From Acidobacteriota bacterium (GTDB lineage Bacteria; Acidobacteriota; Aminicenantia; UBA2199), in the NCBI GenBank assembly GCA_022711715.1, contig JAKLEC010000002.1, positions 5,881 to 69,880 of the forward strand: 64,000 nt of DNA, given 5' to 3'. Below the pieces are notes generated by a model. It made no database searches, was not told the origin of the DNA, and saw only the letters and a list, made by a program, of their open reading frames with translations. A program made the translations under genes and the position numbers. How positions within the stretch are numbered: the first letter of the stretch is position 1; every line of letters starts with the position of its first letter. Of this stretch, positions 10,784 to 58,021 are shown one piece after another.

Positions 10784-10912
10784 GTGATTCGTAATTCGTG
10801 ATTCGTAGAGGGCACTGACCGATCCCTTTTCCCATCCGGGCAGGAGTACACGTGTTGGCGAAGCTCGATCTGCGCTCGCTTCGCGAATCACGAATTACGA
10901 GTCACGAATCAC
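10784..10912. repeat. Heptamer-array hairpin element R1
   Basis: Left arm GTGATTC GTAATTC GTGATTC (10784-10804). Right arm GAATCAC GAATTAC GAGTCAC GAATCAC (10885-10912). The arms are complementary (21 bp, 1 mismatch) around an 80-nt core. Lies between convergent stops at 10780 and 10932. Confidence 0.85.
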
Positions 10913-10931
10913 GTATCCTGACAGCCGAATT

Positions 10932-11333
10932 TTATTCTACTTTGAACAGCTTCCCCGTCGCCAGCGCCAGCTCCTGGCCGCTGCTGTCAACGATGCGCCC
11001 CTCGGCGAAGACAATGCGCCCGCGGGCGCCCGTCAACCGGGCCGATACCCGGCAGGGCTCGCCGGTCATGGCCGGCTTGCGGAACTTGACCGTGATCTCG
11101 GCGGTGACGCTCTTCAGGCCGGTGGCGGCGGCCGCCTGGACCATGGTTTCGTCGAGTACCGTGGCCAGCAGGCCGCCGTGGACGGTGCAGCGCCAGCCCT
11201 GGAACTGCACCGGGAAGGCCACGTCGGCCTCGGCGGCGCCGCCGGCGGCGTCGCGGCGGAACTCCAGCTGCAGGCCGGCGACGTTCTTGCGGCCGCACAC
11301 GAAGCAGTTCTGGTCGTCGTCGAATCGTTTCAT
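10932..11333 (-). CDS. PaaI/hotdog-fold thioesterase
   Basis: Track ORF trimmed to MKRFDDDQNCFVCG... Contains CFVCG...N..GL.L.F and HGGLLATVLDETM motifs typical of PaaI-type thioesterases. Confidence 0.8.
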   Translation of the reverse strand: MKRFDDDQNCFVCGRKNVAGLQLEFRRDAAGGAAEADVAFPVQFQGWRCTVHGGLLATVLDETMVQAAAATGLKSVTAEITVKFRKPAMTGEPCRVSARLTGARGRIVFAEGRIVDSSGQELALATGKLFKVE

Positions 11334-11418
11334 GAGGATGGTTATACTCCTTTTCCCCTGGCAAGGGAAGCCGGCGCCCGCCTTGACAGGAGGCGCGAAA
11401 TCGCATACCATCCTTCCC

Positions 11419-12618
11419 ATGTTCGACTTCAGCAACCTCCGGAAGGCGGCCATCCTGTTCTCGGGTGGGCCGGCGCCGTCGGCTAACGCCGTCATCTCCT
11501 CGGTGGCCCTCAACTTCATCAACGCCAAGGTGCCCATCATCGGCTTCTACTTCGGCTTCGAGTTCCTCGAGGACTACGACAAGGCCAACCGCTACTCGCT
11601 GTCGGCGGGCGTCCACTACCAGGCGCTCGACATCACCATCTCGCGCATCCGCAACCATCGCGGCGTTTACCTGAAGACCTCGCGGGCCAACCCCGGCCGC
11701 CTGATCAAGTCCCCCCAGGACCTGAACGATCCCGAGAAGAACCGGCGCTTGCTGCACATCCTCGAGGCGCTCCAGGCGTTGGGCGTCGGCTGCCTGATCA
11801 CCATCGGCGGCGACGACACGTTGAAGACGGCCAACTTCCTGAACCGCCTGGGGCTGCCGGTGATCCACATCCCCAAGACCATCGACAACGACTACTTCGG
11901 CATCGCCTGGACCTTCGGCTACTGGAGCAGCGTCCAGGCCAGCCAGGAGGCGCTGCTCAACCTCAAGGCCGACGCCGAGAGCACCGGCTCGTACTTCATC
12001 GCCGAGCTGATGGGCCGCAAGGCCGGCTGGCTGACGTATGCCGCCGGCATCGCCGGGGAGGCGGTGCAGATGATCTCCACCGAGGACGTCGACGAGGACG
12101 TGCTCGACCTGGACCAGCTGGCCGAGCGCATCGTGGACACCATGCTGCTGCGCGAGAAGAACGACAAGTACTACGGAGTGATCTGCGTGGCCGAAGGGCT
12201 GGCCGACCGCCTGCCGGACAAGTACCGGCCCACCGAGACCGACCGCCACGGCAACGTCATCCTGGGCACGGCCGAGGTCGGGCGCGTGCTGCGCGACGCC
12301 GCCGAGCGCCTGTACCACCAGCGCACCGGCCGCAAGAAAAAGATCATCTACAAGCAGATCGGCTACGAGACGCGCAACGCCCCGCCCATCAGCTTCGACG
12401 TGGTCATGTCCAGCATGCTCGGCTACGGAGCCTACAAGCTCTACAAGAACCGGCAGTTCGGCTGCATGGTCTCGGTGTCGGACAATTTCTCCATCGTCGG
12501 CGTCCCCTTCGAGCAGCTCATCGACCCGGAAACCCTGCTCACCAAACTGCGCAACGTGCCCAAGGGCAGCGACTTCTTCGAGCTGAAAGAGGCCCTGTCC
12601 TATAAATTAAGCGAATAA
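11419..12618 (+). CDS. pfp: 6-phosphofructokinase, predicted pyrophosphate-dependent (PfkA family)
   Basis: Track ORF 10852..12618 trimmed to MFDFSNLRKAAILFSGGPAP. Motifs: ITIGGDDTLKTA, IPKTIDNDY, MGRKAGWL. Confidence 0.85.
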   Translation: MFDFSNLRKAAILFSGGPAPSANAVISSVALNFINAKVPIIGFYFGFEFLEDYDKANRYSLSAGVHYQALDITISRIRNHRGVYLKTSRANPGRLIKSPQDLNDPEKNRRLLHILEALQALGVGCLITIGGDDTLKTANFLNRLGLPVIHIPKTIDNDYFGIAWTFGYWSSVQASQEALLNLKADAESTGSYFIAELMGRKAGWLTYAAGIAGEAVQMISTEDVDEDVLDLDQLAERIVDTMLLREKNDKYYGVICVAEGLADRLPDKYRPTETDRHGNVILGTAEVGRVLRDAAERLYHQRTGRKKKIIYKQIGYETRNAPPISFDVVMSSMLGYGAYKLYKNRQFGCMVSVSDNFSIVGVPFEQLIDPETLLTKLRNVPKGSDFFELKEALSYKLSE

Positions 12619-12626
12619 GGACTTGG

Positions 12627-12940
12627 CTGACGGTTGACGGCGTACGGCATACGGCAAGGCACTCGACGATCAAAATTCGGCCGCGATCAACCGCACAGGA
12701 TTTGAAACCCTCCTTTGCGGTTAGGTTTCAAAGGATTCCTTTTCTGGCAGCATGACAGGGCGCTTCTTCCCTGCGCCGTCCACCGGGCACCGGGTTTCGC
12801 TTCAATGCGGTTGCCGTGCGCCGTACGCCGTCAGCCGTACGCCGAGTTACGGTTTCGCGCTCTTGCCGAACACCGTCAACCGTATGCCGTATGCCGAGTT
12901 TCGCTTCAGTGCGGCTGCCGTACGCCGTCCGCCGCAGACC
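12627..12940. repeat. Composite heptamer-array element R2
   Basis: Reverse-orientation array GACGGTT GACGGCG TACGGCA TACGGCA (12629-12656). Then three tandem modules, each GTTTCGC-leader plus a CCGTNNG array, beginning at 12794, 12852 and 12898 (arrays 12814-12848, 12866-12900, 12918-12938). Also CACCGGG x2 (12781-12794) and a 9-bp hairpin TTTGAAACC/GGTTTCAAA (12701-12730). Confidence 0.85.
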
Positions 12941-12949
12941 TAGTTGCTG

Positions 12950-14257
12950 CTATTTGTATCTGACCCAGCGCAGCATCTCGCCCAGCGTCGGCTTCTTGCC
13001 GTACATCAGCATGCCGACGCGGAAGATCTTGGCGCCCAGCCAGGCCAGCCCCCAGATGGTCAGCAGGCACAAGCCGATGGCGGCCAGGATCTGCCACAAC
13101 GGCGGGATGGCGGTGGTGATGCGCATGAACATCAGGATGGGGGAGAAGAGCGGGAAGAGCGAGGCGCCCACGGTCAGGGCGGAATTGGGGTTCTGGATGG
13201 CCGAGATGCCCAGGATGTAGGGGACGATGATCAGCACCGACAGCACGCCGGCGAACTGCTGCGCCTCCTGGTCGGTGTTGACCGCGGCGCCGATGAAGGC
13301 GTAGGGGATGGCGTAGACGAAGAAGCCCAGCACGAAGAAGACGACGAAGTAGAGGGCGATCTCCGGGGTGAGGAAGGAGAGGATGCCCGCGTCGATGCTC
13401 CCCGAGAAGCGCGTGACCAGGAGGCCGGCCAGCACGATCCAGATGGCGACCTGGGTCAGGCCGGCCAGCCCGATGCCCAGCAGCTTGCCGTAGAAGATAT
13501 GGGCGGGCCGCGCCGAGGCGATCAGCAGCTCGGAGATGCGGCTGGTCTTCTCCTCCAGCACGCCGCGCATGATCATCTGCCCGTAGTTGATCAGGATCAT
13601 GAACAGGATGACGATCATGAACAGCGACATCATGTAGTCCATGCCCGAGTCGGACTTGGTGGTCCCCTCCTTCTTGACCTTGAAGGTCTCCATGTCGACT
13701 TCGCGCGTGGCCTCGTCGACCACCGCCGGGTCGATGCTCCTCTCCAGCAGCAGCTGCTTGGAGATGGCGGTGCGCAGGGTCGACTCGATGAATTTGAGGG
13801 TGGCGAAGTCGGAGACCGAGGTGGAGTAGTAGGCGAGCTGGCGCTTGGCCTTGACGTCGGCGGGGATGAGCAGCAGGCCGTCGACCTCCTTGCGGAGCAC
13901 TTTCTGCTCGTATTCCTTCACCAGCGCCGCGGCGTCGCGGCCGGCCAGCGGCACCGGCTGGAAGGTGATGCGGCCGCCCTGCTGCATGGCCTGCTGCTGG
14001 TCGGCGGCGTTGAGGTCGATGCCCTTTTTCTTCGCCTCCTTCGGCTTCGCCGGCCTGGCGTTCAGGGCATCGATGTAGCCGCCGGCGTAGTCGGCGACGG
14101 CAATGGTCTTGTCGGTGCGGCCCACCTTCATCAGCAGCACCGGCACGAACATCATGGCGGCCATCAGTACCGGCGTGAGCACGGTCATGATGATGAAGGA
14201 CTTCTTCTTGACGATGACCTTGTATTCCTTCTTGATGACGGCGAGGATCTTGTTCAT
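12950..14257 (-). CDS. ABC-2 type transporter permease (NatB/YhaP-like)
   Basis: Real start MNKILAVIKKEYKVIVKKKSF (ATGA overlap with the ATPase stop). Architecture: N-terminal TM, large extracytoplasmic loop, then 5-6 C-terminal TM helices. The 897-aa track ORF is an upstream read-through in another gene's shadow. Confidence 0.85.
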   Translation of the reverse strand: MNKILAVIKKEYKVIVKKKSFIIMTVLTPVLMAAMMFVPVLLMKVGRTDKTIAVADYAGGYIDALNARPAKPKEAKKKGIDLNAADQQQAMQQGGRITFQPVPLAGRDAAALVKEYEQKVLRKEVDGLLLIPADVKAKRQLAYYSTSVSDFATLKFIESTLRTAISKQLLLERSIDPAVVDEATREVDMETFKVKKEGTTKSDSGMDYMMSLFMIVILFMILINYGQMIMRGVLEEKTSRISELLIASARPAHIFYGKLLGIGLAGLTQVAIWIVLAGLLVTRFSGSIDAGILSFLTPEIALYFVVFFVLGFFVYAIPYAFIGAAVNTDQEAQQFAGVLSVLIIVPYILGISAIQNPNSALTVGASLFPLFSPILMFMRITTAIPPLWQILAAIGLCLLTIWGLAWLGAKIFRVGMLMYGKKPTLGEMLRWVRYK

Positions 14258-15165
14258 GCTCCGGCTCCTTCCTGGACCTTGCGGATGAAGATATTCTGCA
14301 GCGACGGCTCGCTGACCTGGAAGCCGCTCACAACGACGCGGCCCAGCAGGTCGCGCAGCAGCTGCTCGCGCTTGGAAAGGTCGGCGAGCTCGATCTCCAG
14401 CTCGCGCCCCGAATCGCGGCAGGAGGCGACATTGGGCAGGCCGGCGACGAAGCGGGCATCGCCCTCGTACTGCACCTTGATGGCGCGCTGGCCGTAGTCC
14501 GCCTTGACCGCCGCCAGGGCGCCGTCGAGCACCTTGCGCCCCTGGTGGATCATCACCAGCGAGTCCACCGTCTTCTCGGCGTACTCCATCAGGTGGGTGG
14601 AATAGATGATCGTCGTCCCCTGGCGCCGGCTCTCGAGCATGATATCCTTCACCAGCTCGATGTTCAGCGGGTCGAGGCCCGAGAAGGGCTCGTCTAAAAT
14701 GAGGAGCTCGGGATCGTGCAAAACGGTGACGATGAACTGCAGCTTCTGGGCCATGCCCTTGGAGAGCTCCTCGACCTTCTTTTCCTCGTAGCCGTCCAGC
14801 TGGAACCGCTTCAGCAGCATGCGGCCGCGCTCGCGCGCCGCCGCCGGCTTCATCCCCTTCAGCTCGGCGAAGAAGATCAGCGTGTCCATCACCTTCAGCT
14901 TGCGGTAGAGGCCGCGCTCCTCGGGAAGGAAACCGATGCGGTCCTTCACGCTTTCGCTCAGCGGCTGCCCCAGGACCTCGATGGTCCCGGCGTCGGGGGC
15001 GATGATGTCCATGATCATGCGCATGGTGGTCGACTTGCCGGCGCCGTTCGGGCCCAGCAGGCCGAGGATCTCGCCGCGCGGGACCGCGAAGCTGATGTGG
15101 TCGACGGCGCGCTTGCCGTCGAAGTCCTTGACCAGGTCCTGCAATGCCAATGCCATTTCGCTCAT
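14254..15165 (-). CDS. ABC transporter ATP-binding protein (NatA-like, with C-terminal extension)
   Basis: Walker A GPNGAGKST, signature LSKGMAQKLQF, Walker B LLILDEPFSGLD. Confidence 0.92.
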   Translation of the reverse strand: MSEMALALQDLVKDFDGKRAVDHISFAVPRGEILGLLGPNGAGKSTTMRMIMDIIAPDAGTIEVLGQPLSESVKDRIGFLPEERGLYRKLKVMDTLIFFAELKGMKPAAARERGRMLLKRFQLDGYEEKKVEELSKGMAQKLQFIVTVLHDPELLILDEPFSGLDPLNIELVKDIMLESRRQGTTIIYSTHLMEYAEKTVDSLVMIHQGRKVLDGALAAVKADYGQRAIKVQYEGDARFVAGLPNVASCRDSGRELEIELADLSKREQLLRDLLGRVVVSGFQVSEPSLQNIFIRKVQEGAGA

Positions 15166-15248
15166 GAGGTCTCCTTGTATTCACGGCGGCCCGGGACGGC
15201 AGGGAACCGCCGCTGTTTATACGCAGGGCGGCCGGCCAGGGTTTCCCC

Positions 15249-17123: not shown

Positions 17124-17773
17124 TGGCGCTCGCGGCCGGCCAGGGCCAGCACCTTCTGCATGTCCTCCCACACCTCCCATTTGGCCTTGGAGATCTCCTC
17201 CTGGTCGCGCTTGTGCAGGATGAAGGCCGGGTGATAGGTGGGAACGAGCGGGATGCCGGCGAACTCCAGCTGCTGGCCGCGGATGCGCCCCATGCTGTAG
17301 GCGGTGCCCAGCAGGTTGTTCAGCGCCACCTTGCCCAGGCAGACGATGACCCTGGGGCGCAGGACGGCGATCTGCCGCCGCAGGAAGGGCAGGCAGGCGT
17401 CGACCTCGTCCTTCAGCGGTTCGCGGTTGTTGGGCGGCCGGCACTTGACCACGTTGCCGATGAACACGTCCTGCCGCTCCAGCCCCATCTTCTGGATGAT
17501 CTTGTCCAGCAGCTGGCCGGCGCGGCCGATGAAGGGGCGGCCGAACTGGTCCTCGGTCTCGCCCGGCCCCTCGCCGACGAAGAGGATGCCGGGTCGCGGA
17601 TTGCCCTCGCCGGGCACGTAGTGCGTCTTGCTCTCGTGCAGCCGGCAGCGGCGGCACTGCAGGATCTCGCGGTTCAGCTCGGCCAGGTCGGCGCGCGGGT
17701 CGCTGACCGGCAGGTGGAGGAACTCGGCCCCCATCTCGCCGTAGAACTTCAGGATCTCGCGCAGATCGTTCAT
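17120..17773 (-). CDS. Uracil-DNA glycosylase, family 4
   Basis: CRRCRLHE..., FVGEGPGETEDQFGRPFIGRAGQLLD, TYHPAFIL motifs. Confidence 0.9.
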   Translation of the reverse strand: MNDLREILKFYGEMGAEFLHLPVSDPRADLAELNREILQCRRCRLHESKTHYVPGEGNPRPGILFVGEGPGETEDQFGRPFIGRAGQLLDKIIQKMGLERQDVFIGNVVKCRPPNNREPLKDEVDACLPFLRRQIAVLRPRVIVCLGKVALNNLLGTAYSMGRIRGQQLEFAGIPLVPTYHPAFILHKRDQEEISKAKWEVWEDMQKVLALAGRERH

Positions 17774-17787
17774 CGCCTGAATGCCGT

Positions 17788-20449: not shown

Positions 20450-20452
20450 GGC

Positions 20453-22255: not shown

Positions 22256-22263
22256 GGGCCGGA

Positions 22264-23124: not shown

Positions 23125-23125
23125 G

Positions 23126-24675: not shown

Positions 24676-24739
24676 CACAAAAATCCGTTCCCTTCGCCTT
24701 TCTTCCCGCGTTAGACGCGGGAAGAAAGGCGAAGGACGG
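24676..24739 (-). terminator. Rho-independent terminator after serC
   Basis: Perfect 20-bp stem CCTTCGCCTTTCTTCCCGCG / CGCGGGAAGAAAGGCGAAGG (24691-24710 / 24716-24735) with a 5-nt loop. On the minus strand it is followed by ATTTTTGTG. Confidence 0.8.
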
Positions 24740-24742: not shown

Positions 24743-25819
24743 TTATTTGTTTTCGTTGGCGAATTTCTCCATGAACTGGACCAGGGCCTTGACCCCCTCC
24801 AGGCCCATGGCGTTGTAAATCGAGGCCCGGCAGCCGCCGACGCTGCGATGCCCCTTGAGGCCGATGAAGCCGGCCTTCTTGGCCTCGTTGACGAACTTTT
24901 CCTCCAGCTCCTCCGAAGGCAGGCGGAAGGTGACATTCATCCGCGAACGGTCCTTGGCATTGGCCGTGCCGCGGTAGTAGCCGTTGCTGCCGTCGATGGC
25001 GTCGTAGAGGGCCTTGGCCTTCTGCTCGTTGACCTTCTCGACCGCCGCCAGCCCGCCCTGCGCCTCGATCCAGTCCATGACCAGCTTGATGATGTAGATG
25101 GCGAAGCAGGGCGGGGTGTTGTAGAGCGACTTTTCCTTGGCGTGGGTCTTGTAGCTCAGCATGGTGGTCAGGCCGTCGGCGCAGGCCTCGATCAGGTCGT
25201 TGCGCATGATCACCAGCGTCACTCCCGCCGGGCCGATGTTCTTCTGGGCGCCGGCGTAGATCATGCCGACGTTCTTGAAGTCGATGCGGCGGCTGAAGAT
25301 GTCCGAGGACATGTCGATGACCAGCGGCACGCCGTTCGTCTCCGGGAACTTGGACCACTGGACGCCGCCGATGGTCTCGTTGGAGGTGACGTGCACGTAC
25401 TTGGCGTCGGCCGAGAAGCCGAATTTTTCCGGGATGTAGTTGAAATTCTTGTCCTCGGCGGAGGCGGCCACGTTCACCGTGCCGAACAGCTTGGCCTCCT
25501 TGATGGCTTTCTTGGCCCACTCGCCGGTGTGCACGTAGTCGGCCTTGCCGCCCTTGAGCAGGTTCATGGGGATCATGCCGAACTGCAGGCTGGCGCCGCC
25601 CTGCAGGAACATCACCGTGTAGTTCTCGGGCACGCCGAGCAGCGAGCGGATCTTGGCCTCGGCGGCGTTGATGACCGCCTCGAAGTCCTTGCTGCGGTGG
25701 CTGATCTCCAGGATCGACAGGCCGATGCCGTTCAGGTCCAGGAGCTCGGCCTGGGCCTTCTTCATCACCTCCTGGGGCAGGATGGCGGGACCGGCGTAGA
25801 AATTATACTTTTTGGCCAT
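24743..25819 (-). CDS. serC: Phosphoserine aminotransferase
   Basis: 358 aa. MAKKYNFYAGPAILPQEV, FLQGGASLQF, YAGAQKNIGPAGVT (PLP lysine) motifs. Confidence 0.93.
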   Translation of the reverse strand: MAKKYNFYAGPAILPQEVMKKAQAELLDLNGIGLSILEISHRSKDFEAVINAAEAKIRSLLGVPENYTVMFLQGGASLQFGMIPMNLLKGGKADYVHTGEWAKKAIKEAKLFGTVNVAASAEDKNFNYIPEKFGFSADAKYVHVTSNETIGGVQWSKFPETNGVPLVIDMSSDIFSRRIDFKNVGMIYAGAQKNIGPAGVTLVIMRNDLIEACADGLTTMLSYKTHAKEKSLYNTPPCFAIYIIKLVMDWIEAQGGLAAVEKVNEQKAKALYDAIDGSNGYYRGTANAKDRSRMNVTFRLPSEELEEKFVNEAKKAGFIGLKGHRSVGGCRASIYNAMGLEGVKALVQFMEKFANENK

Positions 25820-32339: not shown

Positions 32340-32449
32340 GGGTTCCTCTGGATCGCTGCTTGGCTTAGTTTGTACTTTAACAAAATATCGGCGGCGAGTC
32401 AACCGCTGCCGCTGCCGCAGCGGCTGAGAAAAAGTCCTGCCCGAGCTTC

Positions 32450-32592
32450 AAGGTTCGACGTTCGAGGTTCGACGTTCGACGTAACGAAGGCCAATTCGCT
32501 TAGGTGCTAAGGATTTCTAGATCAGGTACTGATCGCACAAACGCCTTTACCGTAAGCCGTGCGCCGTGCGCCGTATGCCGAGTATCGAGTAT
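32450..32592. repeat. Modular repeat element R3 (GTTCGAC array + core + CCGTNNG array)
   Basis: GTTCGAC GTTCGAG GTTCGAC GTTCGAC GTAACGA (32453-32487). Core AGGCCAATTCGCTTAGGTGCTAAGG... Then CCGTAAG CCGTGCG CCGTGCG CCGTATG CCGAGTA TCGAGTA (32550-32591). Homologous to 39753-39941. Confidence 0.9.
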
Positions 32593-39651: not shown

Positions 39652-39752
39652 GCACAAACGGCGCCCGGGGCGAAGACGCCCCGGGAACGATAAGAACCAG
39701 GAGCCGCTGACATGCGGCTGACGGTGGACTGGAAATCAGCTAAAAGATCTTC

Positions 39753-39941
39753 AAGGTTCGACGTTCGAGGTTCGACGCTGCCGGCCCCGCCAGGGGCGGC
39801 GTCCCCGAGGAGGGCTCGTTCCGAGTGGGGTTCGACGTAACGAAGGCCAATTCGCTTGGGTGCTGAAGATTCCTAAATTGGATGCTGATCGTCCGATTGC
39901 CTTTGCCGTAAACCGTATGCCGTACACCGTATGCCGAGTGC
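39753..39941. repeat. Modular repeat element R4 (copy of R3 with a 53-nt insertion)
   Basis: GTTCGAC GTTCGAG GTTCGAC (39756-39776), then a 53-nt GC-rich insertion (39777-39829), then GTTCGAC GTAACGA (39830-39843). Core AGGCCAATTCGCTTGGGTGCTGAAG... Then CCGTAAA CCGTATG CCGTACA CCGTATG CCGAGTG (39906-39940). Confidence 0.9.
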
Positions 39942-44759: not shown

Positions 44760-44779
44760 GCGCGTTTCGCGATTTTGCT

Positions 44780-44807
44780 TTGCAATCGGTCATTTTTACG
44801 CTATATT
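44780..44807 (+). promoter_or_regulatory. Sigma70-like promoter for the sensor kinase (near-leaderless)
   Basis: TTGCAA (44780-44785), 16-nt spacer, TATATT (44802-44807); ATG 8 nt further on, no Shine-Dalgarno. Confidence 0.4.
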
Positions 44808-44815
44808 GTTCCCTG

Positions 44816-48984: not shown

Positions 48985-48988
48985 CCCG

Positions 48989-50236: not shown

Positions 50237-50243
50237 GGGACGC

Positions 50244-50495: not shown

Positions 50496-50538
50496 GGTGT
50501 TCTCCTTGGTGGATTGGCGATAACTTTCTATTACTATG

Positions 50539-50713
50539 GAAGGGGAGGGAAAGTCAATAGAGCCGGATCCTGGCGTACGGCATACGGCGTACGGCGGGAC
50601 GAAGCTCAGGGAAGACGGAGGGAAGAGAGAGTGGGACAAAGCCATCCCAGTGCATCTTTCTCAATATTTCTTCCCTCTGCCTTTCCCTTTTTCCTTCCCT
50701 CTCTCTTCCCTGG
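50539..50713. repeat. Repeat element R5 (GGCRTAC array plus complementary purine and pyrimidine arrays)
   Basis: GGCGTAC GGCATAC GGCGTAC GGCGGGA (50572-50599), the reverse complement of the CCGTAYG arrays. Purine run AGGGAAG ACGGAGG GAAGAGA GAGTGGG (50608-50635). Pyrimidine run CTTCCCT CTGCCTT TCCCTTT TTCCTTC CCTCTCT CTTCCCT (50670-50711). Confidence 0.85.
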
Positions 50714-50730
50714 AGCACCAGGACACCTTC

Positions 50731-50739
50731 TGCTATAAT
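50731..50739 (+). promoter_or_regulatory. Extended -10 promoter element; HAD gene apparently leaderless
   Basis: TGCTATAAT (TATAAT = 50734-50739), 5 nt, then the ATG at 50745; no Shine-Dalgarno. Confidence 0.45.
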
Positions 50740-50744
50740 AATAA

Positions 50745-51434
50745 ATGCTCCAAAAAACGCACCGGCGCCCGTCCGCCCTGATCTTCGACATGGACGGTTT
50801 GATGATCGACTCCGAGCGCCTCTATTTCGCCGCCGAGCGCGAGATGGCCGCGCAGTTCGGCAAGGAGCTCCGCGACGAGCAATTATGGCCGCTGATGGGG
50901 CGCAAGCCCATCGAGTCGCTGCGCCTGTTGCGCGGCATCCTGGGGATCGATCCCCCCGCCGAGGAGCTCCTCGAATGGCGTAACCGGCTGATGCTCGCGA
51001 AGATGCGGCGTGAGCTGGGCGCCATGCCCGGGCTGCACGAGATCCTGGAGGCCTTTCATGGCCGGCTGAAGCTGGCCGTGGCCACCGGCGCCCAGCGGGA
51101 GTTCCTGGACATCGCCCTCGACACGCTGCGCATCCGCGGCTACTTCGCCGTGCTGCAGACCGCCGACGGCCTGGAGCGCGGCAAGCCTGACCCGGAAATT
51201 TATCGCCTCGCCTGCAGCCGCCTGGGTCTGCCGCCGGCGGCGTGCATCGTGCTCGAGGACGCGCGCAACGGCGTGCTGGCCGGCAGGGCCGCCGGCTGCC
51301 CGGTCGTCGCCGTGCCCAACGACTACACCCGCGGCCAGGATTTCAGCGAAGCCGACTGGGTCGAGCCCGACCTCTTCGCCGCGGCGCGCCGGATCGAGAA
51401 GCTGCTGGACGCCAGGAATGGAGCCAATCAATGA
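50745..51434 (+). CDS. HAD-superfamily hydrolase (beta-phosphoglucomutase/phosphatase-like)
   Basis: Motif I FDMDGLMIDSE, motif II VATG, motif III/IV GKPDPEIY...LEDARNGVLAG. Confidence 0.88.
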   Translation: MLQKTHRRPSALIFDMDGLMIDSERLYFAAEREMAAQFGKELRDEQLWPLMGRKPIESLRLLRGILGIDPPAEELLEWRNRLMLAKMRRELGAMPGLHEILEAFHGRLKLAVATGAQREFLDIALDTLRIRGYFAVLQTADGLERGKPDPEIYRLACSRLGLPPAACIVLEDARNGVLAGRAAGCPVVAVPNDYTRGQDFSEADWVEPDLFAAARRIEKLLDARNGANQ

Positions 51435-52054
51435 AATCCTTTGGAGATTTTCAAGAAGCGGCCATCACGGGAAAAGGACGCATCGGCCTGTGTTTCCAGG
51501 AACTTGGCGTTCGCTCCCTGCGCGATGCCTGCCGCTGGGTCCAGGAACTGCCCTACGGGTACAACTCGAATCCCGACGACGCCTTCTAGCTGTTCGCCGA
51601 CGGCATGGGCACCTGCTCGTCCAAGCACGGCGTCATCGCCGAGCTGGCGGAGGAGCTCGGGGTCCCCATTTTCAAGTACATCGGGTTTTACCGGCTCGAC
51701 GAAAGCATCGTCGAAGGGGTGGAGCGGATCCTGGCGTTCCACGGGCTGAGCTTCATCCCGCAGACCCATTGCGTCCTCGGTTTCCACGCGACTTTCGTTG
51801 ACCTCACGGCGGGCAATTGCCACGGCAAGAAAAAGGACGTCGTGGACATGGATCTCCTGGTTCGGGTCCCGCCCAGCCCCAACCGGAAGCTGAAGGAGGA
51901 AATCTATTTGTTCGGATTGGCATTTTACAAAAGAAACGACCCGGCGCTCGCCCGCCTTAGCGACTGCGAATGCCTGGAGATCCTCAGGCAGTGCGACGAG
52001 GCGCATCGTTTCATGTGTGCGCTCCTCCCGCGTTCCGAATCGGTCATCCTCTGA
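51431..52054 (+). pseudogene. Uncharacterised gene interrupted by an in-frame TAG (possible transglutaminase/papain-like fold)
   Basis: 51431..51586 (MKSFGDFQEAAITGKG...YGYNSNPDDAF) and 51605..52054 (MGTCSSKHGVIAELAEELGVP...) are in the same frame. They are separated only by the TAG at 51587-51589 plus 5 sense codons. Lower GC than the surroundings. Confidence 0.6.
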
Positions 52055-52106
52055 AGGAAATCTACTGCCAATCCTCCCACCCTGTTCTTGTGTGCGGAAC
52101 GAATTG

Positions 52107-53125
52107 GGGTCGGTACTTTAATTCTTGTATTTGATCTCCTCCCGCTGGAAAGTCACAAGATCCTGACTGCTCTCCCCATTTCTGCTGTGGTAGAATCGGG
52201 CCATGAGATTTCCCAGGCTGACATACCCCGGGGCATTCCATCATGCGACAAGCCGGGGGATCAATGGAGAGAGTATTTTCGCCAATGAAGGGGACAAGAG
52301 CACTTTTCTGGAATTGCTGAGGAAAAAAGCGCGGGTGAACGGCGTACGGATCATTGCCTATTGCGTGATGGACAACCATTATCACCTCATCTTGGAAAAC
52401 ATGTCGGGCCGGCTGTCCCAGTTTTTCAAGCAGTTGAACGGCCAGTACGGGCTGCTCTACCGGAAAAAATCCGGGAGCAAAGGGTACGTATTCCAGGACC
52501 GGTTCCACTCGTCTCTGATCCAAGACGATTCCTATCTGATCCTGGCGATCCGCTATGTTCTCCAGAATCCGGTCAAGGCCGGGCTGGCGCGAGCGGCAAT
52601 TTCCTATCCCTGGTCAAGCGCCAGGTTGTATTTTGATGGATTCAAGCAAGATTGGCTGGCCACGGACATCGTCGAGGGACTGTTCAGGACACGGAAAAAG
52701 TTTCTCGAAACCCTGGGCGATGTTTCCGACGTGGCATTGCCCTTAATAAAGACGAGGCTGGGCCCTGTCATCGGCCAAGAGGATGCGATTGAAGATGCTT
52801 TGCCCAAATTCGAGCGCAGGAAAACAGAGGCGGACGCAAAGCGCATGCGGAGCGAGGACCATTTTTTCGAGCCTGAGGCGAAAGTGATCCAGGAATTTGA
52901 ACGCAAGCATACGATCAAGATCGATCGGATTGACTGCGACACATATTCCGGCAAGCGCCTGAGAGGTGAGCTGCTCGTTTGGCTGCATGATTTCGCAGGC
53001 TCGACATACGCGCAGATCGTCGAGATCCCACTGTTTTACGATCTGAAACCCCAATCGCTGGGGCATCTATATAAAAACGCCAAAAGGAGAGCCGGTGAAG
53101 AATACAAGAATTAAAGTACCGGCCC
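52107..53125 (+). mobile_element. RAYT-type (IS200-like Y1 transposase) unit bracketed by inverted repeats
   Basis: CGGTACTTTAATTCTTGTATT (52111-52131) is the perfect reverse complement of 53101-53121; the match extends to 25 bp with one mismatch (52107-52131 / 53101-53125). The enclosed DNA is visibly AT-richer (by eye ~50% GC). Confidence 0.75.
52203..53114 (+). CDS. REP-associated tyrosine transposase-like protein (Y1/HUH, IS200-like) with C-terminal DnaA-C-like HTH
   Basis: HUH motif MDNHYHLILE, catalytic Tyr region AIRYVLQNPVKAGL, N-terminal YHATSRG. C-terminal LRGELLVWLHDFAGSTYAQIVE resembles the DnaA domain IV helix-turn-helix. Confidence 0.8.
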   Translation: MRFPRLTYPGAFHHATSRGINGESIFANEGDKSTFLELLRKKARVNGVRIIAYCVMDNHYHLILENMSGRLSQFFKQLNGQYGLLYRKKSGSKGYVFQDRFHSSLIQDDSYLILAIRYVLQNPVKAGLARAAISYPWSSARLYFDGFKQDWLATDIVEGLFRTRKKFLETLGDVSDVALPLIKTRLGPVIGQEDAIEDALPKFERRKTEADAKRMRSEDHFFEPEAKVIQEFERKHTIKIDRIDCDTYSGKRLRGELLVWLHDFAGSTYAQIVEIPLFYDLKPQSLGHLYKNAKRRAGEEYKN

Positions 53126-53149
53126 TCACGCTTTAGGAGGTTTTCTGCA

Positions 53150-53899
53150 ATGGATATTCCACGGATATTCAACATCAGCGAAAGCGCTCACCGCATCCAC
53201 GATCCGTTCACGCCCGAAAAGCTCGCCACTCTCGGCGCGGCGCTGCGTCTGGAAAAGGGCACGCGGATTCTCGACCTCGCCAGCGGCTCGGGCGAAATGC
53301 TATGCACCTGGGCACGCGATTACGGAGTCCTCGGCACCGGCGTCGACATGAGCCAGTTGTTCACCGAACAGGCGAAAGTACGCGCTGAAAAGCTCGGCGT
53401 CGCCGGTCAAGTCAAGTTCATCCATGGCGAGGCGGCCGGCTTCATCTCGGACGAGAAGGTCGGCGTGGCCGCCTGTCTCGGCGCCACCTGGATCGGCGGG
53501 GGAGTCGCCGGCACCATCGAGCTTCTGGGGCGGAGTCTCCGCCCCGGAGGGATCATCCTCATCGGCGAGCCCTACTGGCGGCAGCTGCCGCCGACGGAAG
53601 ATGTCGCCAAGGGGTGTCTGGCCGGCGCCATCTCCGATTTTCTCCCGCTTCCGGAACTTCTCGCGTCTTTCGGCCGCCTCGGCTACGATGTCGTGGAGAT
53701 GGTCCTGGCGGACCAGGACAGCTGGGACCGATACGAGGCGGCCAAGTGGCTCACCATGCGCCGATGGCTTGAAGCCTATCCCGCCGACGAGTTGGCGGAC
53801 GAAGTGCGGGCCAAGCTCACCTCGGAACCCGAGCGCTACGCCGCTTACACGCGTGAATACCTGGGCTGGGGCGCGTTCGCGCTGATGACGCGGCGATGA
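53150..53899 (+). CDS. Class I SAM-dependent methyltransferase
   Basis: Motif I ILDLASGSGEM, post-I GVDMS, motif II/III ...LRPGGIILIGEP. Confidence 0.85.
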   Translation: MDIPRIFNISESAHRIHDPFTPEKLATLGAALRLEKGTRILDLASGSGEMLCTWARDYGVLGTGVDMSQLFTEQAKVRAEKLGVAGQVKFIHGEAAGFISDEKVGVAACLGATWIGGGVAGTIELLGRSLRPGGIILIGEPYWRQLPPTEDVAKGCLAGAISDFLPLPELLASFGRLGYDVVEMVLADQDSWDRYEAAKWLTMRRWLEAYPADELADEVRAKLTSEPERYAAYTREYLGWGAFALMTRR

Positions 53900-53939
53900 G
53901 GGGATGAACGAGCAGCTCGGGAAGTAGGAAAAATCCGAT

Positions 53940-55643
<1,704 letters not shown>

Positions 55644-55732
55644 GCAATCCTCCCGGTGGCGCGGCGTCGGCGCGATCGTTGAAGTACAGTTATACAATGA
55701 ACGGGGCCCCGTTTGTCAAGGAACAGAAGCCA

Positions 55733-55918
55733 AGTGATAGTGATCGTGGTAGTGATGGTAGCAAGCAATCGATCGACCTATTGCCTTTCCTTTTCGCCTT
55801 TTACCTTTCGCTTTTCACGATGGTTCGATCCATTGCTGCTTCTCGTCACGCGTCACGCGTTACGCGTTACGATAGCTCGATTGCGTTTCACCGTATGCCG
55901 TACGCCGTATGCCGAGCT
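55733..55918. repeat. Repeat element R6: four different short tandem arrays in series
   Basis: AGTGAT-type hexamers (55733-55762). CCTTTCC TTTTCGC CTTTTAC CTTTCGC TTTTCAC (55784-55818). GTCACGC GTCACGC GTTACGC GTTACGA (55845-55872). CCGTATG CCGTACG CCGTATG CCGAGCT (55891-55918). An imperfect inverted repeat, 55761-55778 / 55822-55839, brackets the second array. Confidence 0.85.
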
Positions 55919-55930
55919 CATCTAATCTGT

Positions 55931-55959
55931 TTGACTGGCAGGTGCCCCTGTCCTACAAT
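55931..55959 (+). promoter_or_regulatory. Sigma70-like promoter; pseudouridine synthase gene apparently leaderless
   Basis: TTGACT (55931-55936), 17-nt spacer, TACAAT (55954-55959), 6 nt, then the ATG at 55966; no Shine-Dalgarno. Confidence 0.5.
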
Positions 55960-55965
55960 CGGGTC

Positions 55966-56847
55966 ATGTCTGGCTCCGCTCCCGGCTACCGCAACATGGA
56001 CCGCTTCTTCATCCAGCTGAAGGCCGGGGAAAGCCTCGCCCTCTCCGCGGCGCTGCAGCGGCACCTGCGGGTGACGCCGGAGGAGGCGGAGCGGCTGCTG
56101 CGACAGGGGAGCGTCTGGGACCACGGCCGCCAGGAGCGGTTGCGGGACGGGAACGCCCTCCTCCATGACCGGCTGCTGCGCGTTGACCGGCCGAAGTTCG
56201 TGATCCGGGAATATGTCCTGGACCCGGCCGACGTGAAGCACGAGGACGAGCACCTGCTGGTGGTCTTCAAGCGCGGCGGGGTGCCGACTCAGCCCACTCC
56301 CTACAGCGACGTCTCCGACCTGCTGCACGGCGTGCAGGGCTACCTGGCGAGCCGGGGCGTCGCCTACCGGCCGGCGCCGGTCAACCGCCTCGACCTGCCG
56401 GCCCAGGGGCTGGTCCTGTTCGCCAAGAGCAAGCGCTGCGAGACGGCGCTACACCGCCTCTTTGACGGGCGGCATGTCCGCAAGCGCTACCTGGCCGCCA
56501 CCGCCCCCTTTGCCGGCGCGCCGGCGTCCTGCGTCATCCGCTCCCGCCTCGAGTGGCAGGGCAAGGAGAAGGAGGCGCTGACGTACGTCCGCTTCTGCCG
56601 AGAGCATGGGGGCCGCTTCTTCTTTCTGGCCCTGCCGCAGAGCGGGCGCACCCACCAGATCCGCCGCCACTTCCGCGAGCGCCTGGCGCCGCTGCTGGGC
56701 GATGTACGCTACGGAGGCGCCGCTCCCGGCGGAGACCTGTGGCTCCTCTGCTTCCAGTACGCCTTTCCCCACCCCTTTTCCAGGGAGCGCTTTTCCGTGC
56801 GCTACGTCCCTCCCGCCTGGCAGGAGGCCATGGGGCTGGAAAAGTAA
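55966..56847 (+). CDS. RluA-family pseudouridine synthase
   Basis: Track ORF trimmed to MSGSAPGYRNMDRFF (alternative start ATG 55996). Catalytic-Asp block PVNRLDLPAQGLVLFAK, GRTHQIRRH. Confidence 0.8.
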   Translation: MSGSAPGYRNMDRFFIQLKAGESLALSAALQRHLRVTPEEAERLLRQGSVWDHGRQERLRDGNALLHDRLLRVDRPKFVIREYVLDPADVKHEDEHLLVVFKRGGVPTQPTPYSDVSDLLHGVQGYLASRGVAYRPAPVNRLDLPAQGLVLFAKSKRCETALHRLFDGRHVRKRYLAATAPFAGAPASCVIRSRLEWQGKEKEALTYVRFCREHGGRFFFLALPQSGRTHQIRRHFRERLAPLLGDVRYGGAAPGGDLWLLCFQYAFPHPFSRERFSVRYVPPAWQEAMGLEK

Positions 56848-56947
56848 ACGAGTAAACGGGTAGAAGGGACAACGGCACTGACAGTGAACTCTTGCCCGTG
56901 TCCTGCCCCGTCAGCTCTTTTACCCTTCCACTCGTTTACTCGTCAAC
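56843..56947. repeat. Repeat element R7: hairpin with AGTAAACG-type arms
   Basis: AGTAAACG AGTAAACG GGTAGAAGGG (56843-56868) is complementary to CCCTTCCA CTCGTTTA CTCGTCAA (56923-56946), ~18/20. The first unit contains the TAA stop of the preceding gene. Confidence 0.8.
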
Positions 56948-56955
56948 CAGTCGCG

Positions 56956-56997
56956 TTGACAAACATAATAACATATGTTAATATATTAATATGTTAG
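56956..56997 (+). promoter_or_regulatory. Promoter plus AT-rich palindromic operator region of the arsR-trx operon (leaderless arsR)
   Basis: TTGACA (56956-56961), 17-nt spacer, TAATAT (56979-56984), 6 nt, ATG at 56991. Palindromes AACATATGTT (56970-56979) and TTAATATATTAA (56978-56989). ATATGTTA repeated at 56973 and 56989. Confidence 0.5.
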
Positions 56998-57395
56998 CCG
57001 ATGTGCTGGTCCTCAAGACCCTGGCCGACGAGAACCGCCTGCGCCTGATGGTCCTGCTGCGCCGGCGCGAGCTGTTCGTCTGCCAGCTCATGGCCGTCAC
57101 CGGCCTCTCGCAGCCGCTGATCTCGCGCAGCCTGGCGCTCCTCGAGCGCGCCGGGCTCCTGGTGTCGCGGCGGCAGGGCAAGCACGTCTTCTACCGCGTC
57201 AGCCCGGCCATGCCGGCCGTGGCCCGGGCGGCGCTGGGGGCGATGGACGCCGCCGCCCCCGGCTCGCTCCTCGCCCGCGACCGCTCCAGCCTGGAGCTGT
57301 TCTGCCGGCGCTTCCGCGGCGAAGGGGCCTGCGACATGGCGGTGGTGCGGCGTTTCATGCAGTATCGCGAAAAAAATCAACCCAAGGAGACATGA
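56991..57395 (+). CDS. ArsR/SmtB-family transcriptional regulator
   Basis: LKTLADENRLRLMVLLRRRELFVCQLMAVTGLSQPLISRSLALLERAGLL winged-helix core. Confidence 0.88.
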   Translation: MLADVLVLKTLADENRLRLMVLLRRRELFVCQLMAVTGLSQPLISRSLALLERAGLLVSRRQGKHVFYRVSPAMPAVARAALGAMDAAAPGSLLARDRSSLELFCRRFRGEGACDMAVVRRFMQYREKNQPKET

Positions 57396-57772
57396 CCATG
57401 GAAAAACTGGACAAGAAGGCGTTCACCGAGAAGATCTTCGACTTCGAGAAGGAAAAGGAGTGGAAATACCTGGGCGCCCGGCCGGCCATCATCGACTTCT
57501 ACGCCGACTGGTGCGGCCCGTGCAAGATGGTCGCCCCGATCCTGGAAAAGATCGCCGCCGAGTACGGCGGCAAGCTGGACGTCTACAAGGTCGACACCGA
57601 CAAGGAGCAGGAGCTGGCCGGCGCCTTCGGCATCCAGAGCATCCCCAGCCTGCTGTTCATCCCCGCCAGCGGCCAGCCGCAGATGGCGCGCGGCGCCCTG
57701 GACCGCGCCGGCTTCGACAAGGTCATTGCCGACGTGCTGCAGGTGAAGAAAGACGAGCCGAAGCAATCGTGA
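57392..57772 (+). CDS. trxA: Thioredoxin
   Basis: WCGPC active site, ...FGIQSIPSLLF; ATGA overlap with arsR. Confidence 0.92.
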   Translation: MTMEKLDKKAFTEKIFDFEKEKEWKYLGARPAIIDFYADWCGPCKMVAPILEKIAAEYGGKLDVYKVDTDKEQELAGAFGIQSIPSLLFIPASGQPQMARGALDRAGFDKVIADVLQVKKDEPKQS

Positions 57773-58021
57773 CGCGTAACGCGTAACGCGTGACGCGGAA
57801 CCGCAAGGAAACGAAACGAATAAAAACAGCGGGCTTCCGAGTCGCTGCCGTTTCAATGCTCGAGTGTTCTGCCATGAACAATTGGGGGGACGTTGACCGC
57901 TCATGCGGAGGCACAAGACGCTCATTGCCTTTTACCCTGGAGCCTGATCATCTCGTTATGGCTGGACTGTGCCTGGGCTGTTACTCGTCATGCTTTACGC
58001 GTCACGCGTGACGATAGTTCG
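57769..58021. repeat. Repeat element R8: GTRACGC arrays flanking a ~190-nt non-coding core
   Basis: GTGACGC GTAACGC GTAACGC GTGACGC (57769-57796; the first unit contains the trxA TGA stop). Right-hand TTTACGC GTCACGC GTGACGA TAGTTCG (57994-58021). The tail ACGATAGTTCG... is homologous to ACGATAGCTCG at 55869-55880. Confidence 0.85.

Follow-up and report, generated by a model that had tools for sequence, protein, structure and literature searches.

Intergenic heptanucleotide-array elements in Candidatus Aminicenantes: a probable superfamily of dispersed, mosaic repeats

The spacers between genes in a 64,000-nt stretch of DNA from an uncultured bacterium (contig JAKLEC010000002.1, positions 5,881 to 69,880; 'the window', throughout) contain arrays of short tandem units, mostly seven bases long and often arranged as complementary arms around a unique core. 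The window is rich in GC (67.6%), and its closest named relatives are metagenome-assembled genomes (MAGs) of Candidatus Aminicenantes, in the Acidobacteriota. An earlier note on this DNA had drawn attention to eight such loci. We think it probable that they belong to a clade-specific superfamily of DNA-level dispersed repeats, akin to repetitive extragenic palindromes (REPs) and bacterial interspersed mosaic elements (BIMEs), that is made up of heptamer-array modules copied between spacers and resized by slippage. Reports of intergenic heptamer arrays go back decades (cyanobacteria, Xanthomonas, Burkholderia, Beggiatoaceae), with no agreement on their origin or function.

One of these is the GGGAATC heptamer of Xanthomonas (Rehm et al. 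2015, PMC4692102), which occurs in approximately 186 intergenic arrays per genome, 70-75 of them as inverted pairs. Between two species, 83% have the same gene context; array lengths vary, and the singular or paired type is kept (PMC4692102). The Aminicenantes elements resemble these arrays in several ways: their units are tandem, intergenic and 7 nt long, the genome is high in GC, and convergent pairs are able to form stem-loops or cruciforms. The repertoire is different, however. The Xanthomonas arrays are built from what is essentially one unit, rich in G and discussed as a former of G-quadruplexes (PMC4692102), whereas the window has at least eight unrelated, mostly non-G-rich units in 64 kb, together with fixed leaders and closures, mosaics and nested hairpins. 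From one sister species to the next, the Aminicenantes elements also turn over faster.

TAACTGA repeats (MacGregor 2015, PMC4679880) are intergenic heptamers, in 2-6 copies, of marine Beggiatoaceae, cyanobacteria and Bacteroidetes. Because there are stop codons in the unit, arrays can overlap coding ends by only a few nucleotides; spread by way of mobile DNA has been discussed. Something similar can be seen at related locus L042, from a 41%-GC Aminicenantes MAG with the same architecture as the window but with the units CCTTAAA and TAACTGAC, where the TAACTGAC array lies directly after a stop codon. Beggiatoaceae have just the one unit, placed for the most part immediately upstream of start codons, and only one inverted repeat has been reported (PMC4679880). 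Aminicenantes have many units and frequent inverted pairs, and their arrays lie mostly at gene ends and upstream of promoters, instead.

The short tandemly repeated repetitive (STRR) sequences of heterocystous cyanobacteria are heptanucleotides, reportedly described by Mazel et al. in 1990. Like these, and like long simple sequence repeats (LSSRs) in general, the present units are tandem, intergenic, lineage-specific and several to the genome. The features by which heptanucleotide LSSRs and STRRs are recognized are all found here: 7-nt units in tandem, at least three times over and beyond chance, in non-coding DNA, and recurrent within the lineage. As far as it is quoted in PMC4692102 and PMC4679880, Mrazek (2007) found heptanucleotides to be the commonest class of LSSR of 5-11 nt in many bacteria, and proposed slippage as their source. 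The definition does not extend to fixed end motifs, to systematic inverted pairing over 24-39 bp, to nesting, or to placement at stop codons, all of which are encountered here.

REPs, BIMEs and REPINs (Di Nocera et al. 2013, PMC3733652) are short, dispersed intergenic repeats found mostly downstream of genes, with frequent head-to-head dimers capable of folding into larger hairpins, mosaic clusters, and several, species-specific, families per genome. The Aminicenantes elements share the inverted dimers and the mosaic clusters between genes. A REP is itself imperfectly palindromic over its 20-40 bp (stem 5-13 bp, short loop) and has an unpaired GTAG or CGTC tag at one end, though, whereas the modules here are tandem and pair only with a second, inverted copy; single modules are not palindromes, and stems form only between inverted modules 30-190 nt apart. 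CGTC is present inside every GCGTCAC unit, and GTAG inside 8-mer units (GTAGAYGG, GGTAGAAGGG), neither as a single, terminal, unpaired tag, and no REP-associated tyrosine transposase (RAYT) gene flanked by array modules (a 'REPtron') was found in the window. Lacking self-palindromy and, in the window, a REPtron, and with the tag motifs internal to the units, the elements would fall outside the definition of REPs; the earlier note, too, had set classical REPs aside. Its analogies with STRRs and with BIME/REP elements were apt, but the inverted GGGAATC pairs of Xanthomonas (PMC4692102) are a closer precedent.

Other familiar elements were compared as well. MITEs, which are transposable elements of miniature size with inverted repeats, differ from those of the window, where no target-site duplication was seen by eye and cores are mostly unique in about 2 Mb. 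CRISPR arrays (short palindromic repeats that are clustered and spaced at regular intervals), as had been pointed out before, differ also, having repeats of 23-50 nt with unique spacers of similar length in place of units of 6-8 nt that abut directly. Intrinsic terminators are GC-rich hairpins with short loops and a U-tract right behind them; here the loops are 30-190 nt long, and a T-run is missing after the arms. The elements are non-coding, and there are no Rfam or tRNA matches in the window or in four related loci. We found no paper on repeats in Aminicenantes in the literature searched and, as far as that literature extends, the heptamer-repeat phenomenon is new for this phylum (Acidobacteriota, Aminicenantes).

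Arrays, arms and modules in the window

Genes were mapped by frame analysis of GC at third codon positions (GC3) and from the gene calls returned with matching assemblies. Spacers make up approximately 3.1 kb, or 5%, of the window (3,080 nt in the array scan), and coding DNA approximately 61 kb. Tandem Repeats Finder (TRF), together with reading of the sequence, places arrays of the units originally listed at all eight loci (Table 1), and 15 of the 17 period-7 rows that it returns are intergenic. Ten period-7 arrays of at least three copies are present in the 3,080 nt; 200 dinucleotide-preserving shuffles yielded a mean of 0.03 and a maximum of 1. No enrichment was found in intergenic DNA for periods 5, 6, 8 or 9 in the same comparison. 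Period-7 arrays of at least three copies are completely missing from the approximately 61 kb of coding DNA, and a stricter scan of the window returned six that are intergenic and none that are coding. The expected concentration of arrays between genes, rather than within them, was thus confirmed. Judging from their coordinates, the elements total approximately 1.5 kb, roughly half of the intergenic DNA that the window contains.

At five of the eight loci, inverted arms combine into long hairpins. The arms are 19-39 nt in length and 76-89% complementary (Table 1), and the z-scores for folding range from -2.9 to -5.0. The loci at 32453, 39756 and 55733 have no complementary arms and are solitary arrays or mosaics, such that complementarity of arms applies to five loci and not to the other three. 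Inverted pairing exceeds expectation, nevertheless: 29 of 95 arrays (approximately 30%) have an inverted partner within 400 nt, versus at most 11 of 95 in any of five controls.

Six independent assemblies (JGI, ENA, NCBI GCA_035913195.1 and Logan) match this DNA at 99.93-100% over 1.7-18 kb, with no indels, and no array differences were found among near-identical strains that differ by 4-13 substitutions over 13-18 kb. Since strains that are approximately 99.9% identical show no change in their arrays, the arrays are neither artefacts nor hypermutable. The idea that they are contingency loci, and vary in phase, was rejected because their lengths are constant among these strains. Contigs of short-read MAGs tend to break at the elements, and in a fragmented sister MAG the repeats tend toward contig ends, as errors of assembly or sequencing might. 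But six assemblies agree, and homologous elements occur in dozens of other MAGs, on long contigs among others; an artefact, which the earlier note had allowed for, is vanishingly improbable.

To judge from their sequences, the arrays are modules with fixed flanking motifs, not random microsatellites. The clearest module, M1, opens with the leader GTTTCGC..GCGGTTG, continues with (CCGTNNG)3-5 and closes with CCGAG, to which TTC is often added. Other types include (GCGTYAC)n-GATAGTTCG, (CTTCCCT)n-CTGGAG and (GTTCGAC)n-GTAACGAAGGCCAATTCGCTT. Much of this had been recognized before. Five plus-strand CCGTAYG arrays do end in CCGAG (at 12848, 12898, 32590, 39938 and 55918), and there is a sixth, at 12916-12936, that ends in CCGCAG. 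The ACGATAGYTCG tail does occur twice, at 55870-55880 and 58011-58021; the GTTTCRC leaders are where they were said to be; and two stop codons, TAA (56845) and TGA (57770), do lie inside the first units of their arrays.

Dispersal and turnover among relatives

A strict 19-nt pattern for M1, CCGTAYGCCGTAYGCCGAG, was scanned against one genome per species for 185,579 species. It matched 85 stretches. Thirty-seven of these are loci in a few close Aminicenantes MAGs, with DAHVOV01, the nearest relative, accounting for 21, and the rest are single matches, mostly in unrelated taxa. In Aminicenantes, M1 occurs with unrelated flanks and with neighboring modules in varying order: (GCGTYAC)n-GATAGTTCG; (CTTCCCT)n-CTGGAG, as at 50669-50712 in the window; (GTGGTAC)n-GTGGAACCTCGACG; (TTTGGAA)n; and (AATCACT)n. 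Modules also nest. An AAATTCC/GGAATTT hairpin is found, with the same core, inside GTGACGC arms at one locus (L140) and inside CATACGG arms at another (L198), in different genomes. That modules recombine, as had been suggested from the window alone, is borne out by these varied juxtapositions and nestings in relatives. In a blastn survey of approximately 2 Mb of related DNA from many species, hairpin arms proved to be multi-copy and most cores unique; copies of whole elements include the inner AAATTCC hairpin, the type-B element of the thioredoxin (Trx)-to-helicase spacer described below, and the hairpin of another module, M3.

CCGTACG arrays of four or more units are found outside Aminicenantes in Xanthomonas campestris (L100, where a CGCCGGG array follows), in Streptomyces (L086) and in Vicinamibacteraceae (L090). 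On the evidence of these sequences, the unit has been amplified independently in other taxa.

Relatives were represented by 71 related loci gathered using the helicase gene at 58062-60422. Close relatives are those with at least 83% helicase identity, and their GC contents range from 52 to 68%; distant ones comprise other Aminicenantes and other Acidobacteriota. Period-7 arrays number 21.9 per 100 kb in the window, 16.3 in close relatives (399 kb) and 2.3 in distant relatives (642 kb), 7 being the clear mode of period length. Density in the close clade is thus approximately seven times that of the sister clade. M1 is absent from the unbiased close-clade loci (378 kb), and module families are narrower in distribution than arrays overall. 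Farther away, two MAGs of Acidobacteria gp5 have a GGATTTC/GAAATCC hairpin directly after a TGA, and a TGGTCCA/TGGACCA hairpin. Together with the low-GC Aminicenantes lineage, these suggest a distribution that extends beyond the close clade.

Among the orthologous sites, the Trx-to-helicase spacer (57773-58061 in the window) was compared in 22 species. In 17 of these its layout is that of an array hairpin: a left array (GTRAYNN)n with a stop codon inside or beside it, an unalignable core, a complementary right array, the tail (T)AGNTCG, and a promoter, TTTACTAAT..TGCTATTTT. Four others have GTAG...CTAC REP-like hairpins in its place. Five unit types are represented, and left and right arms of the same type score 13.6-23.4 across species, versus 6-12.4 off the diagonal. 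Unit type is discordant with the helicase tree. Types A, B and C, as well as a REP-like hairpin, are all found within a single tight clade, and type B, core included, is present in three separate clades. Because of this discordance, the best explanation for the matching arms is that whole elements were replaced, or alleles exchanged; if elements are swapped as blocks, arms match because they are copies of one module, and there is no need for stepwise compensation. Stepwise compensatory covariation was rejected accordingly, the test of own versus cross arms being confounded by shared unit types and the helicase tree showing block replacement. The proposal that structure rather than sequence is retained therefore survives in part. 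Arms do match in this spacer despite their differing units, but unit type departs from phylogeny, elements with their cores are shared between clades, and sequence modules with fixed end motifs are themselves conserved and dispersed.

Gain and loss are evident at other spacers. The convergent spacer after the gene at 10954-12618 is empty (20-50 nt) in 7 of 27 metagenomic relatives, contains REP-like hairpins in 5, and heptamer hairpins of three unit types in 4. Three relatives at approximately 88% protein identity (L272, L273 and L275) offer a closer look. L273 has the window mosaic of 55733-55918 minus one GTTACGC unit, a 7-nt indel. In L272 two modules of the same mosaic are missing, and there is a palindrome without a core, ATCGTGACGCGT-T-ACGCGTCACGAT. 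In L275, where modules are replaced, two M1 modules form an inverted pair, the left copy with its own canonical leader and closure. The spacer between the pseudouridine synthase and ArsR genes (PsiU-to-ArsR; 56848-56990 in the window) is empty in L275, L016 and L017. Hairpins homologous to the 8-mer hairpin of 56843-56943 are found in L023, L032, L272 and L273, and the loop is reverse-complemented in L023, L032 and L273 relative to the window and L272.

Two observations from these spacers are separate matters. Classical-looking GTAG...CTAC REP hairpins occupy positions where the window has heptamer hairpins at L013, L014, L019 and L029 (Trx-to-helicase), and at L015, L019, L024 and L025 (PsiU-to-ArsR); others occur at L192, L196 and L203-L205, examples being GTAGGGGCGACC..GGTCGCCCCTAC and GTAGGGACAGGTCGCGACCTGTCCCTAC. 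A conserved element of approximately 200 nt (..CGCTCACCACTCCGGCGCAGACCCATCAC..GACATGACCAACTCGCCCCGG..CAGTGGTCATGT..) lies between PsiU and ArsR in L012 (reversed), L013, L020, L021, L028 and L075. It is found in either orientation, is absent from the window, and matches nothing in Rfam; it would be a structured RNA or else a further mobile repeat.

Gene ends and competing explanations

Five elements of the window are in tandem spacers, one is in a convergent spacer, and two are in divergent spacers, these types having been assigned by hand for the window only. Of 48 window genes, three are followed by stops in all three frames within 17-19 nt; the window median is 628 nt. The distance is 17 nt after the stops at 10780 and 57772, and 19 nt after that at 56847, and these are exactly the gene ends that are followed by GTRA-type arrays. 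Closure is rapid in 12 of 17 thioredoxin orthologues as well. As a matter of arithmetic, it results from the presence of a stop codon within a unit of 7 or 8 nt. Three-frame stops could act as a filter for tolerance of insertions into gene ends, a case that MacGregor made for TAACTGA (PMC4679880), or they could be a selected back-up stop.

The hairpins themselves show no preference for one strand. When 16 orthologous hairpins were folded on both strands, no asymmetry was found: sense was the more stable in 8 of 16, and G-U pairs numbered 52, versus 65 in antisense. No U-tracts or T-runs follow the arms. Canonical terminators in the window number 15, versus 10.5 +/- 3.4 expected, which is no excess, and none coincides with an arm; an explanation in terms of canonical promoters and terminators was rejected on this account. 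Lack of strand asymmetry, of U-tracts and of a terminator excess together weaken the idea that these are mRNA hairpins. They point to symmetric, DNA-level repeats, compatible with use as RNA hairpins at some sites.

The elements are confined to spacers, occur in multiple copies at unrelated sites, are gained and lost at orthologous sites, change in steps of 7 nt, nest and flip, and are symmetric as DNA. The way of life that we propose for them is as follows. The building block is a module of approximately 30-50 bp, a short tandem array of mostly 7-bp units, with a family-specific leader on the inside and an end motif on the outside. Modules occur singly, next to one another, or as an inverted pair with unrelated DNA between the copies, and such pairs form the long hairpins, much like REP doublets (REPINs). 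They would spread as DNA, by means of a trans-acting enzyme or by recombination between copies, and their arrays would grow and shrink by replication slippage, the preference for 7 nt being the same as in bacterial long SSRs. Copies might then persist wherever they are harmless. Those at coding ends would be the ones with TGA, TAA or TAG in their units, three-frame closure allowing insertions into the last codons to be tolerated. Effects on transcripts, such as a 3' hairpin or insulation of the next promoter, would be a by-product, perhaps co-opted at some sites; a role as terminator or insulator would be secondary, and is unproven.

Several things sit uneasily with this proposal. We have identified no enzyme that mobilizes the arrays, and found no link to them for the one Y1/HUH gene of the window. 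Filled and empty sites, when compared by eye and not exhaustively, displayed no target-site duplication. Most hairpin cores are unique in the approximately 2 Mb surveyed, unlike those of classical MITEs and REPINs. Some kind of hairpin is present in the Trx-to-helicase spacer in 21 of 22 genomes (17 array, 4 REP-like), which hints at a host requirement there, and the repeated appearance of the same unit types at that one site could reflect allele exchange by homologous recombination, not transposition.

The elements might be RNA punctuation selected by the host, instead. Hairpins would be transcribed with the upstream gene and act as U-tract-independent terminators, as barriers to 3'-exonucleases, or as insulators before the next, often leaderless, promoter; the left arm would be a stop-rich back-up that halts frameshifted or read-through ribosomes before they melt the stem. 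Arms do begin in or next to stop codons, they finish 5-40 nt before -35 boxes, and their stems of 24-39 bp fold strongly. The near-universal hairpin of the Trx-to-helicase spacer persists despite swaps of sequence, with arms, tail and promoter conserved there while cores are unalignable. Frames close far sooner than the window median, and as canonical terminators are unenriched, another signal may serve. Yet neither stability nor G-U pairing distinguishes sense from antisense, the arms have no U-tract, and similar elements stand between divergent promoters (50568-50712 and 55733-55918), a position at which one would not expect a 3' end. Orthologous spacers are in many cases empty, approximately two thirds of arrays have no partner arm, and the GTTCGAC-core-CCGTAYG element has no fold. 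On balance we consider punctuation unlikely, though well short of implausible. A more elaborate version, in which a leaderless, high-GC lineage maintains the elements at gene ends—the stop-rich array to close all three frames within approximately 20 nt of the stop codon, its inverted partner to make a long, U-tract-free stem that ends transcription or insulates the next promoter, and dedicated machinery to copy the modules between spacers—strikes us as doubtful.

Copying between sites could be dispensed with altogether if the arrays were purely local products: heptanucleotide microsatellites that arise by slippage in place, with arms made, and kept complementary, by intramolecular template switching (quasi-palindrome correction). 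The prevalence of heptanucleotides among long SSRs, in so far as Mrazek (2007) is quoted in PMC4679880 and PMC4692102, is in keeping with this, as is the 7-nt indel that separates the window from L273. Period 7 cannot persist in coding DNA, and variation inside arrays consists mostly of transitions. But it is left unexplained why the same leaders and end motifs (CCGAG, GATAGTTCG, CTGGAG) should recur at dozens of sites that are unrelated, and why nested elements should share cores, and such fixed ends argue against slippage in situ as the sole process. The left arm in L275, having a canonical M1 leader and closure of its own, cannot be a copy of the right arm, and strains that are 99.9% identical show no variation in length. 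A local origin is accordingly improbable, in our view. A protein that binds the arrays is more improbable still. On this hypothesis they would be iterated DNA or RNA sites for a lineage-specific multimer, for instance a nucleoid-associated protein, a ring of the TRAP or HutP kind, or a transposase at subterminal repeats. Subterminal iterated motifs are transposase-binding sites in other mobile elements, and the regular period, the proximity of arrays to promoters and gene ends, and a clade-restricted abundance that would suit a clade-restricted protein all agree with it. The presence of at least eight unrelated units in one 64-kb window, and of other sets in sister species, calls for many proteins or none, however, and this diversity argues against any single one. 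Spacing of 7 bp is out of helical phase on duplex DNA, and no candidate protein is encoded beside the window arrays.

Whether or not dispersal as DNA proves to be the right interpretation, the Aminicenantes clade, with its many unit families, fixed ends, nested hairpins and dozens of sister genomes at graded divergence, makes it possible to separate copying, slippage, replacement and inversion. It is a test case for arrays as selfish DNA comparable to REPINs but different in architecture, and for the importance of three-frame stop pads at gene ends in high-GC genomes. There is a practical side, too, for annotators of Acidobacteriota MAGs: arrays break short-read assemblies, and mislead gene callers by way of the ATG in CCGTATG.

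Individual loci, a transposase gene and minor features

Table 1. Array-bearing elements of the window, with arrays found by TRF and arms found as inverted repeats (length and complementarity in brackets)
Feature	Position	Strand	Setting or content	TRF arrays	Complementary arms	Basis
Hairpin element	10775-10917	.	directly after stop codon 10778-10780	10783-10807, 10884-10917	10775-10805 / 10884-10914 (31 nt, 87%)	TRF, inverted repeat; RNA fold -61 kcal/mol, z = -5.0
Composite element	12621-12936	.	fills convergent spacer	12637-12656, 12813-12844, 12880-12896	12621-12657 / 12811-12847 (37 nt, 84%)	TRF, inverted repeat; fold z = -4.4
Dispersed element, copy 1	32442-32590	+	(GTTCGAC)n, ~62-nt conserved core GTAACGAAGGCCAATTCGCTT..GATTTCTAGATCAGGTACTGATCG, (CCGTRYG)4-CCGAG	32453-32482, 32550-32580	arms non-complementary	
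Dispersed element, copy 2	39750-39940	+	GTTCGAC array with ~53-nt secondary insert inside	39756-39777, 39904-39936		
Element between divergent promoters	50568-50712	.		50572-50596, 50669-50711	50607-50625 / 50694-50712 (19 nt, 89%)	TRF, inverted repeats
Mosaic between divergent genes	55733-55918	+		55733-55756, 55783-55816, 55844-55871, 55891-55914		TRF, inverted repeats, promoter scan
Hairpin starting at stop codon TAA (56845-56847)	56843-56943	.	8-nt unit	56843-56862	56843-56875 / 56908-56940 (33 nt, 76%); a second repeat of 21 nt (90%)	TRF; fold z = -4.35
Hairpin starting at stop codon TGA (57770-57772)	57766-58021	.		57768-57801	57766-57804 / 57977-58015 (39 nt, 82%)	TRF, inverted repeat; fold z = -2.9
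Possible extra member, weak	60967-61025	.	(GCCGGCG)x3.3 GC-rich array and partial complement, right after stop 60962-60964	period 7, 3.3 copies	13-nt inverted repeats (85-92%)	TRF

In the first member, a left arm of (GTGATTC/GTAATTC)x3.6 at 10783-10807 is separated by a unique core (10808-10883) from a right arm of (GAATCAC/GAATTAC)x4.9 at 10884-10917. The composite element that follows starts with a reverse-oriented M1, ACTTGG-(TGACGGY/RTACGGC)n, at 12621-12657, and has its core at 12658-12810. Behind these, at 12790-12936, are three M1 modules in tandem on the plus strand, all with the leader GTTTCGC..GCGGTTG, (CCGTNNG)3-4, and CCGAG, except that the last closes with CCGCAG. At 12790-12929 the M1 modules are themselves tandem, with a higher-order period of 52 nt repeated 2.7 times (TRF). 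The arms of this element are multi-copy at other loci; the core is unique in the DNA surveyed.

The GTTCGAC element occurs twice in the window. The secondary insert in copy 2 (39778-39830, GCTGCCGGCCCCGCCAGGGGCGGCGTCCCCGAGG..CCGAGTGGG) lies between two GTTCGAC units, and alignment shows the same insert in L002, L003 and L004; the TTCGACG that is present on both sides of it is a target duplication or merely array units. The core of the element is on four contigs of the sister MAG DAHVOV01, three times within approximately 90 nt of a contig end and once approximately 1 kb away. No significant fold was found for either copy on either strand (z about 0). The idea that it encodes a small RNA was rejected because of this, and because a small internal stem shows no covariation.

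In the element between divergent promoters, a reverse-oriented M1 array, (GGCGTAC)x3.6, at 50572-50599 is followed by the M3 hairpin at 50607-50712, with arms that are GGGAAGA-like and CTTCCCT-like and an end of CTTCCCTGGAG. The M3 module, CTTCCCT..CCCTGGAG, adjoins M1 in L099 and L101, and its complement, GGGAAGAGAGAGTGGGAGAAGCC, sits in another spacer of L272. The mosaic between divergent genes starts with (AGTGAT)x4 at 55733-55762. A hairpin at 55764-55837 has a CCTTTCG-like array for its loop; module M2, at 55843-55880, comprises (GTCACGC/GTTACGC)x4 and GATAGCTCG; and an M1 module at 55885-55918, GTTTCA-(CCGTAYG)3-CCGAG, abuts the -35 box at 55931.

The hairpin at the TAA codon has AGTAAACG AGTAAACG GGTAGAAGGG for its left arm and CCCTTCCACTCGTTTACTCGT for its right. 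That at the TGA codon has a left arm of (GTGACGC/GTAACGC)x4.9, a unique core of approximately 170 nt, and a right arm of GCGTCAC units with the tail GATAGTTCG, which stops approximately 5 nt before the helicase -35 box, TTTACT. The weak, extra member at 60967-61025 could be an ordinary GC-rich terminator hairpin, instead.

The only Y1/HUH gene in the window (52203-53114) encodes a Y1_Tnp protein of 303 aa, and its best model is the REP-associated tyrosine transposase, at 70 bits (the cutoff is 80). The gene has perfect inverted repeats of 20 bp, GGTACTTTAATTCTTGTATT (52112-52131 / 53101-53120), preceded by GGGGTC, the terminal inverted repeats (TIRs) being about 25 bp altogether. The right repeat of this element (52105-53127) overlaps the stop codon. 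Its relatives, at up to 50% identity and from several phyla, have similar TIRs of the GGGGACGG type; within the close clade, they were found in only one other assembly (L169). The gene is part of a segment of lower GC (51431-53899; 57.6% for 52001-54000), with two small open reading frames and a methyltransferase gene, that is absent from relatives, where the genes for a HAD hydrolase and an AMP-binding protein are adjacent. The segment is probably an insertion. In its organization the Y1 element fits what Di Nocera et al. 2013 (PMC3733652) called a 'TIRtron/TIRYT', and does not correspond to a REPtron that would serve the arrays. As a mobilizer of arrays it was rejected on present evidence, being flanked by its own TIRs, not by arrays, in a low-GC insertion that relatives lack.

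Two further features are reminiscent of the arrays. Just downstream of the minus-strand gene 24743-25819 there is a perfect 21-bp hairpin, at 24691-24735 (CCTTCGCCTTTCTTCCCGCGT / ACGCGGGAAGAAAGGCGAAGG, with a 3-nt loop), whose arm is similar to CCTTTCG/CTTCCCT units; the hairpin has zero matches in the other loci compared. At 56956-56996, an AT-rich palindrome, AACATAATAACATATGTTAATATATTAATATGTT, that looks like an operator overlaps the promoter of the ArsR/HTH_5 gene and is conserved in all relatives. TRF scores it as a period-8 repeat, but it has no relation to the array family and is probably the autoregulatory site.

The palindrome ACGCGT has nine sites in the window, where approximately 22 are expected from base composition, and seven of these are inside arrays; it is thus rare in coding DNA. 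CGTACG displays a weaker version of the same pattern, with 7 of 16 sites in spacers. The thought that ACGCGT might be a restriction site was dropped: its sites are concentrated in arrays, seven of nine, but such small numbers do not allow interpretation.

Finally, the arrays bear on start codons. The called start of the pseudouridine synthase gene, ATG 55909, is inside a CCGTATG unit. The real start is probably ATG 55966, 7 nt after the promoter TTGACT-17-TACAAT (55931-55959), with a predicted leaderless mRNA; homologues are called at 309-335 aa, probably because their starts are likewise miscalled. Other genes in the window also look leaderless, such as the one with TATAAT 6 nt before ATG 50745.

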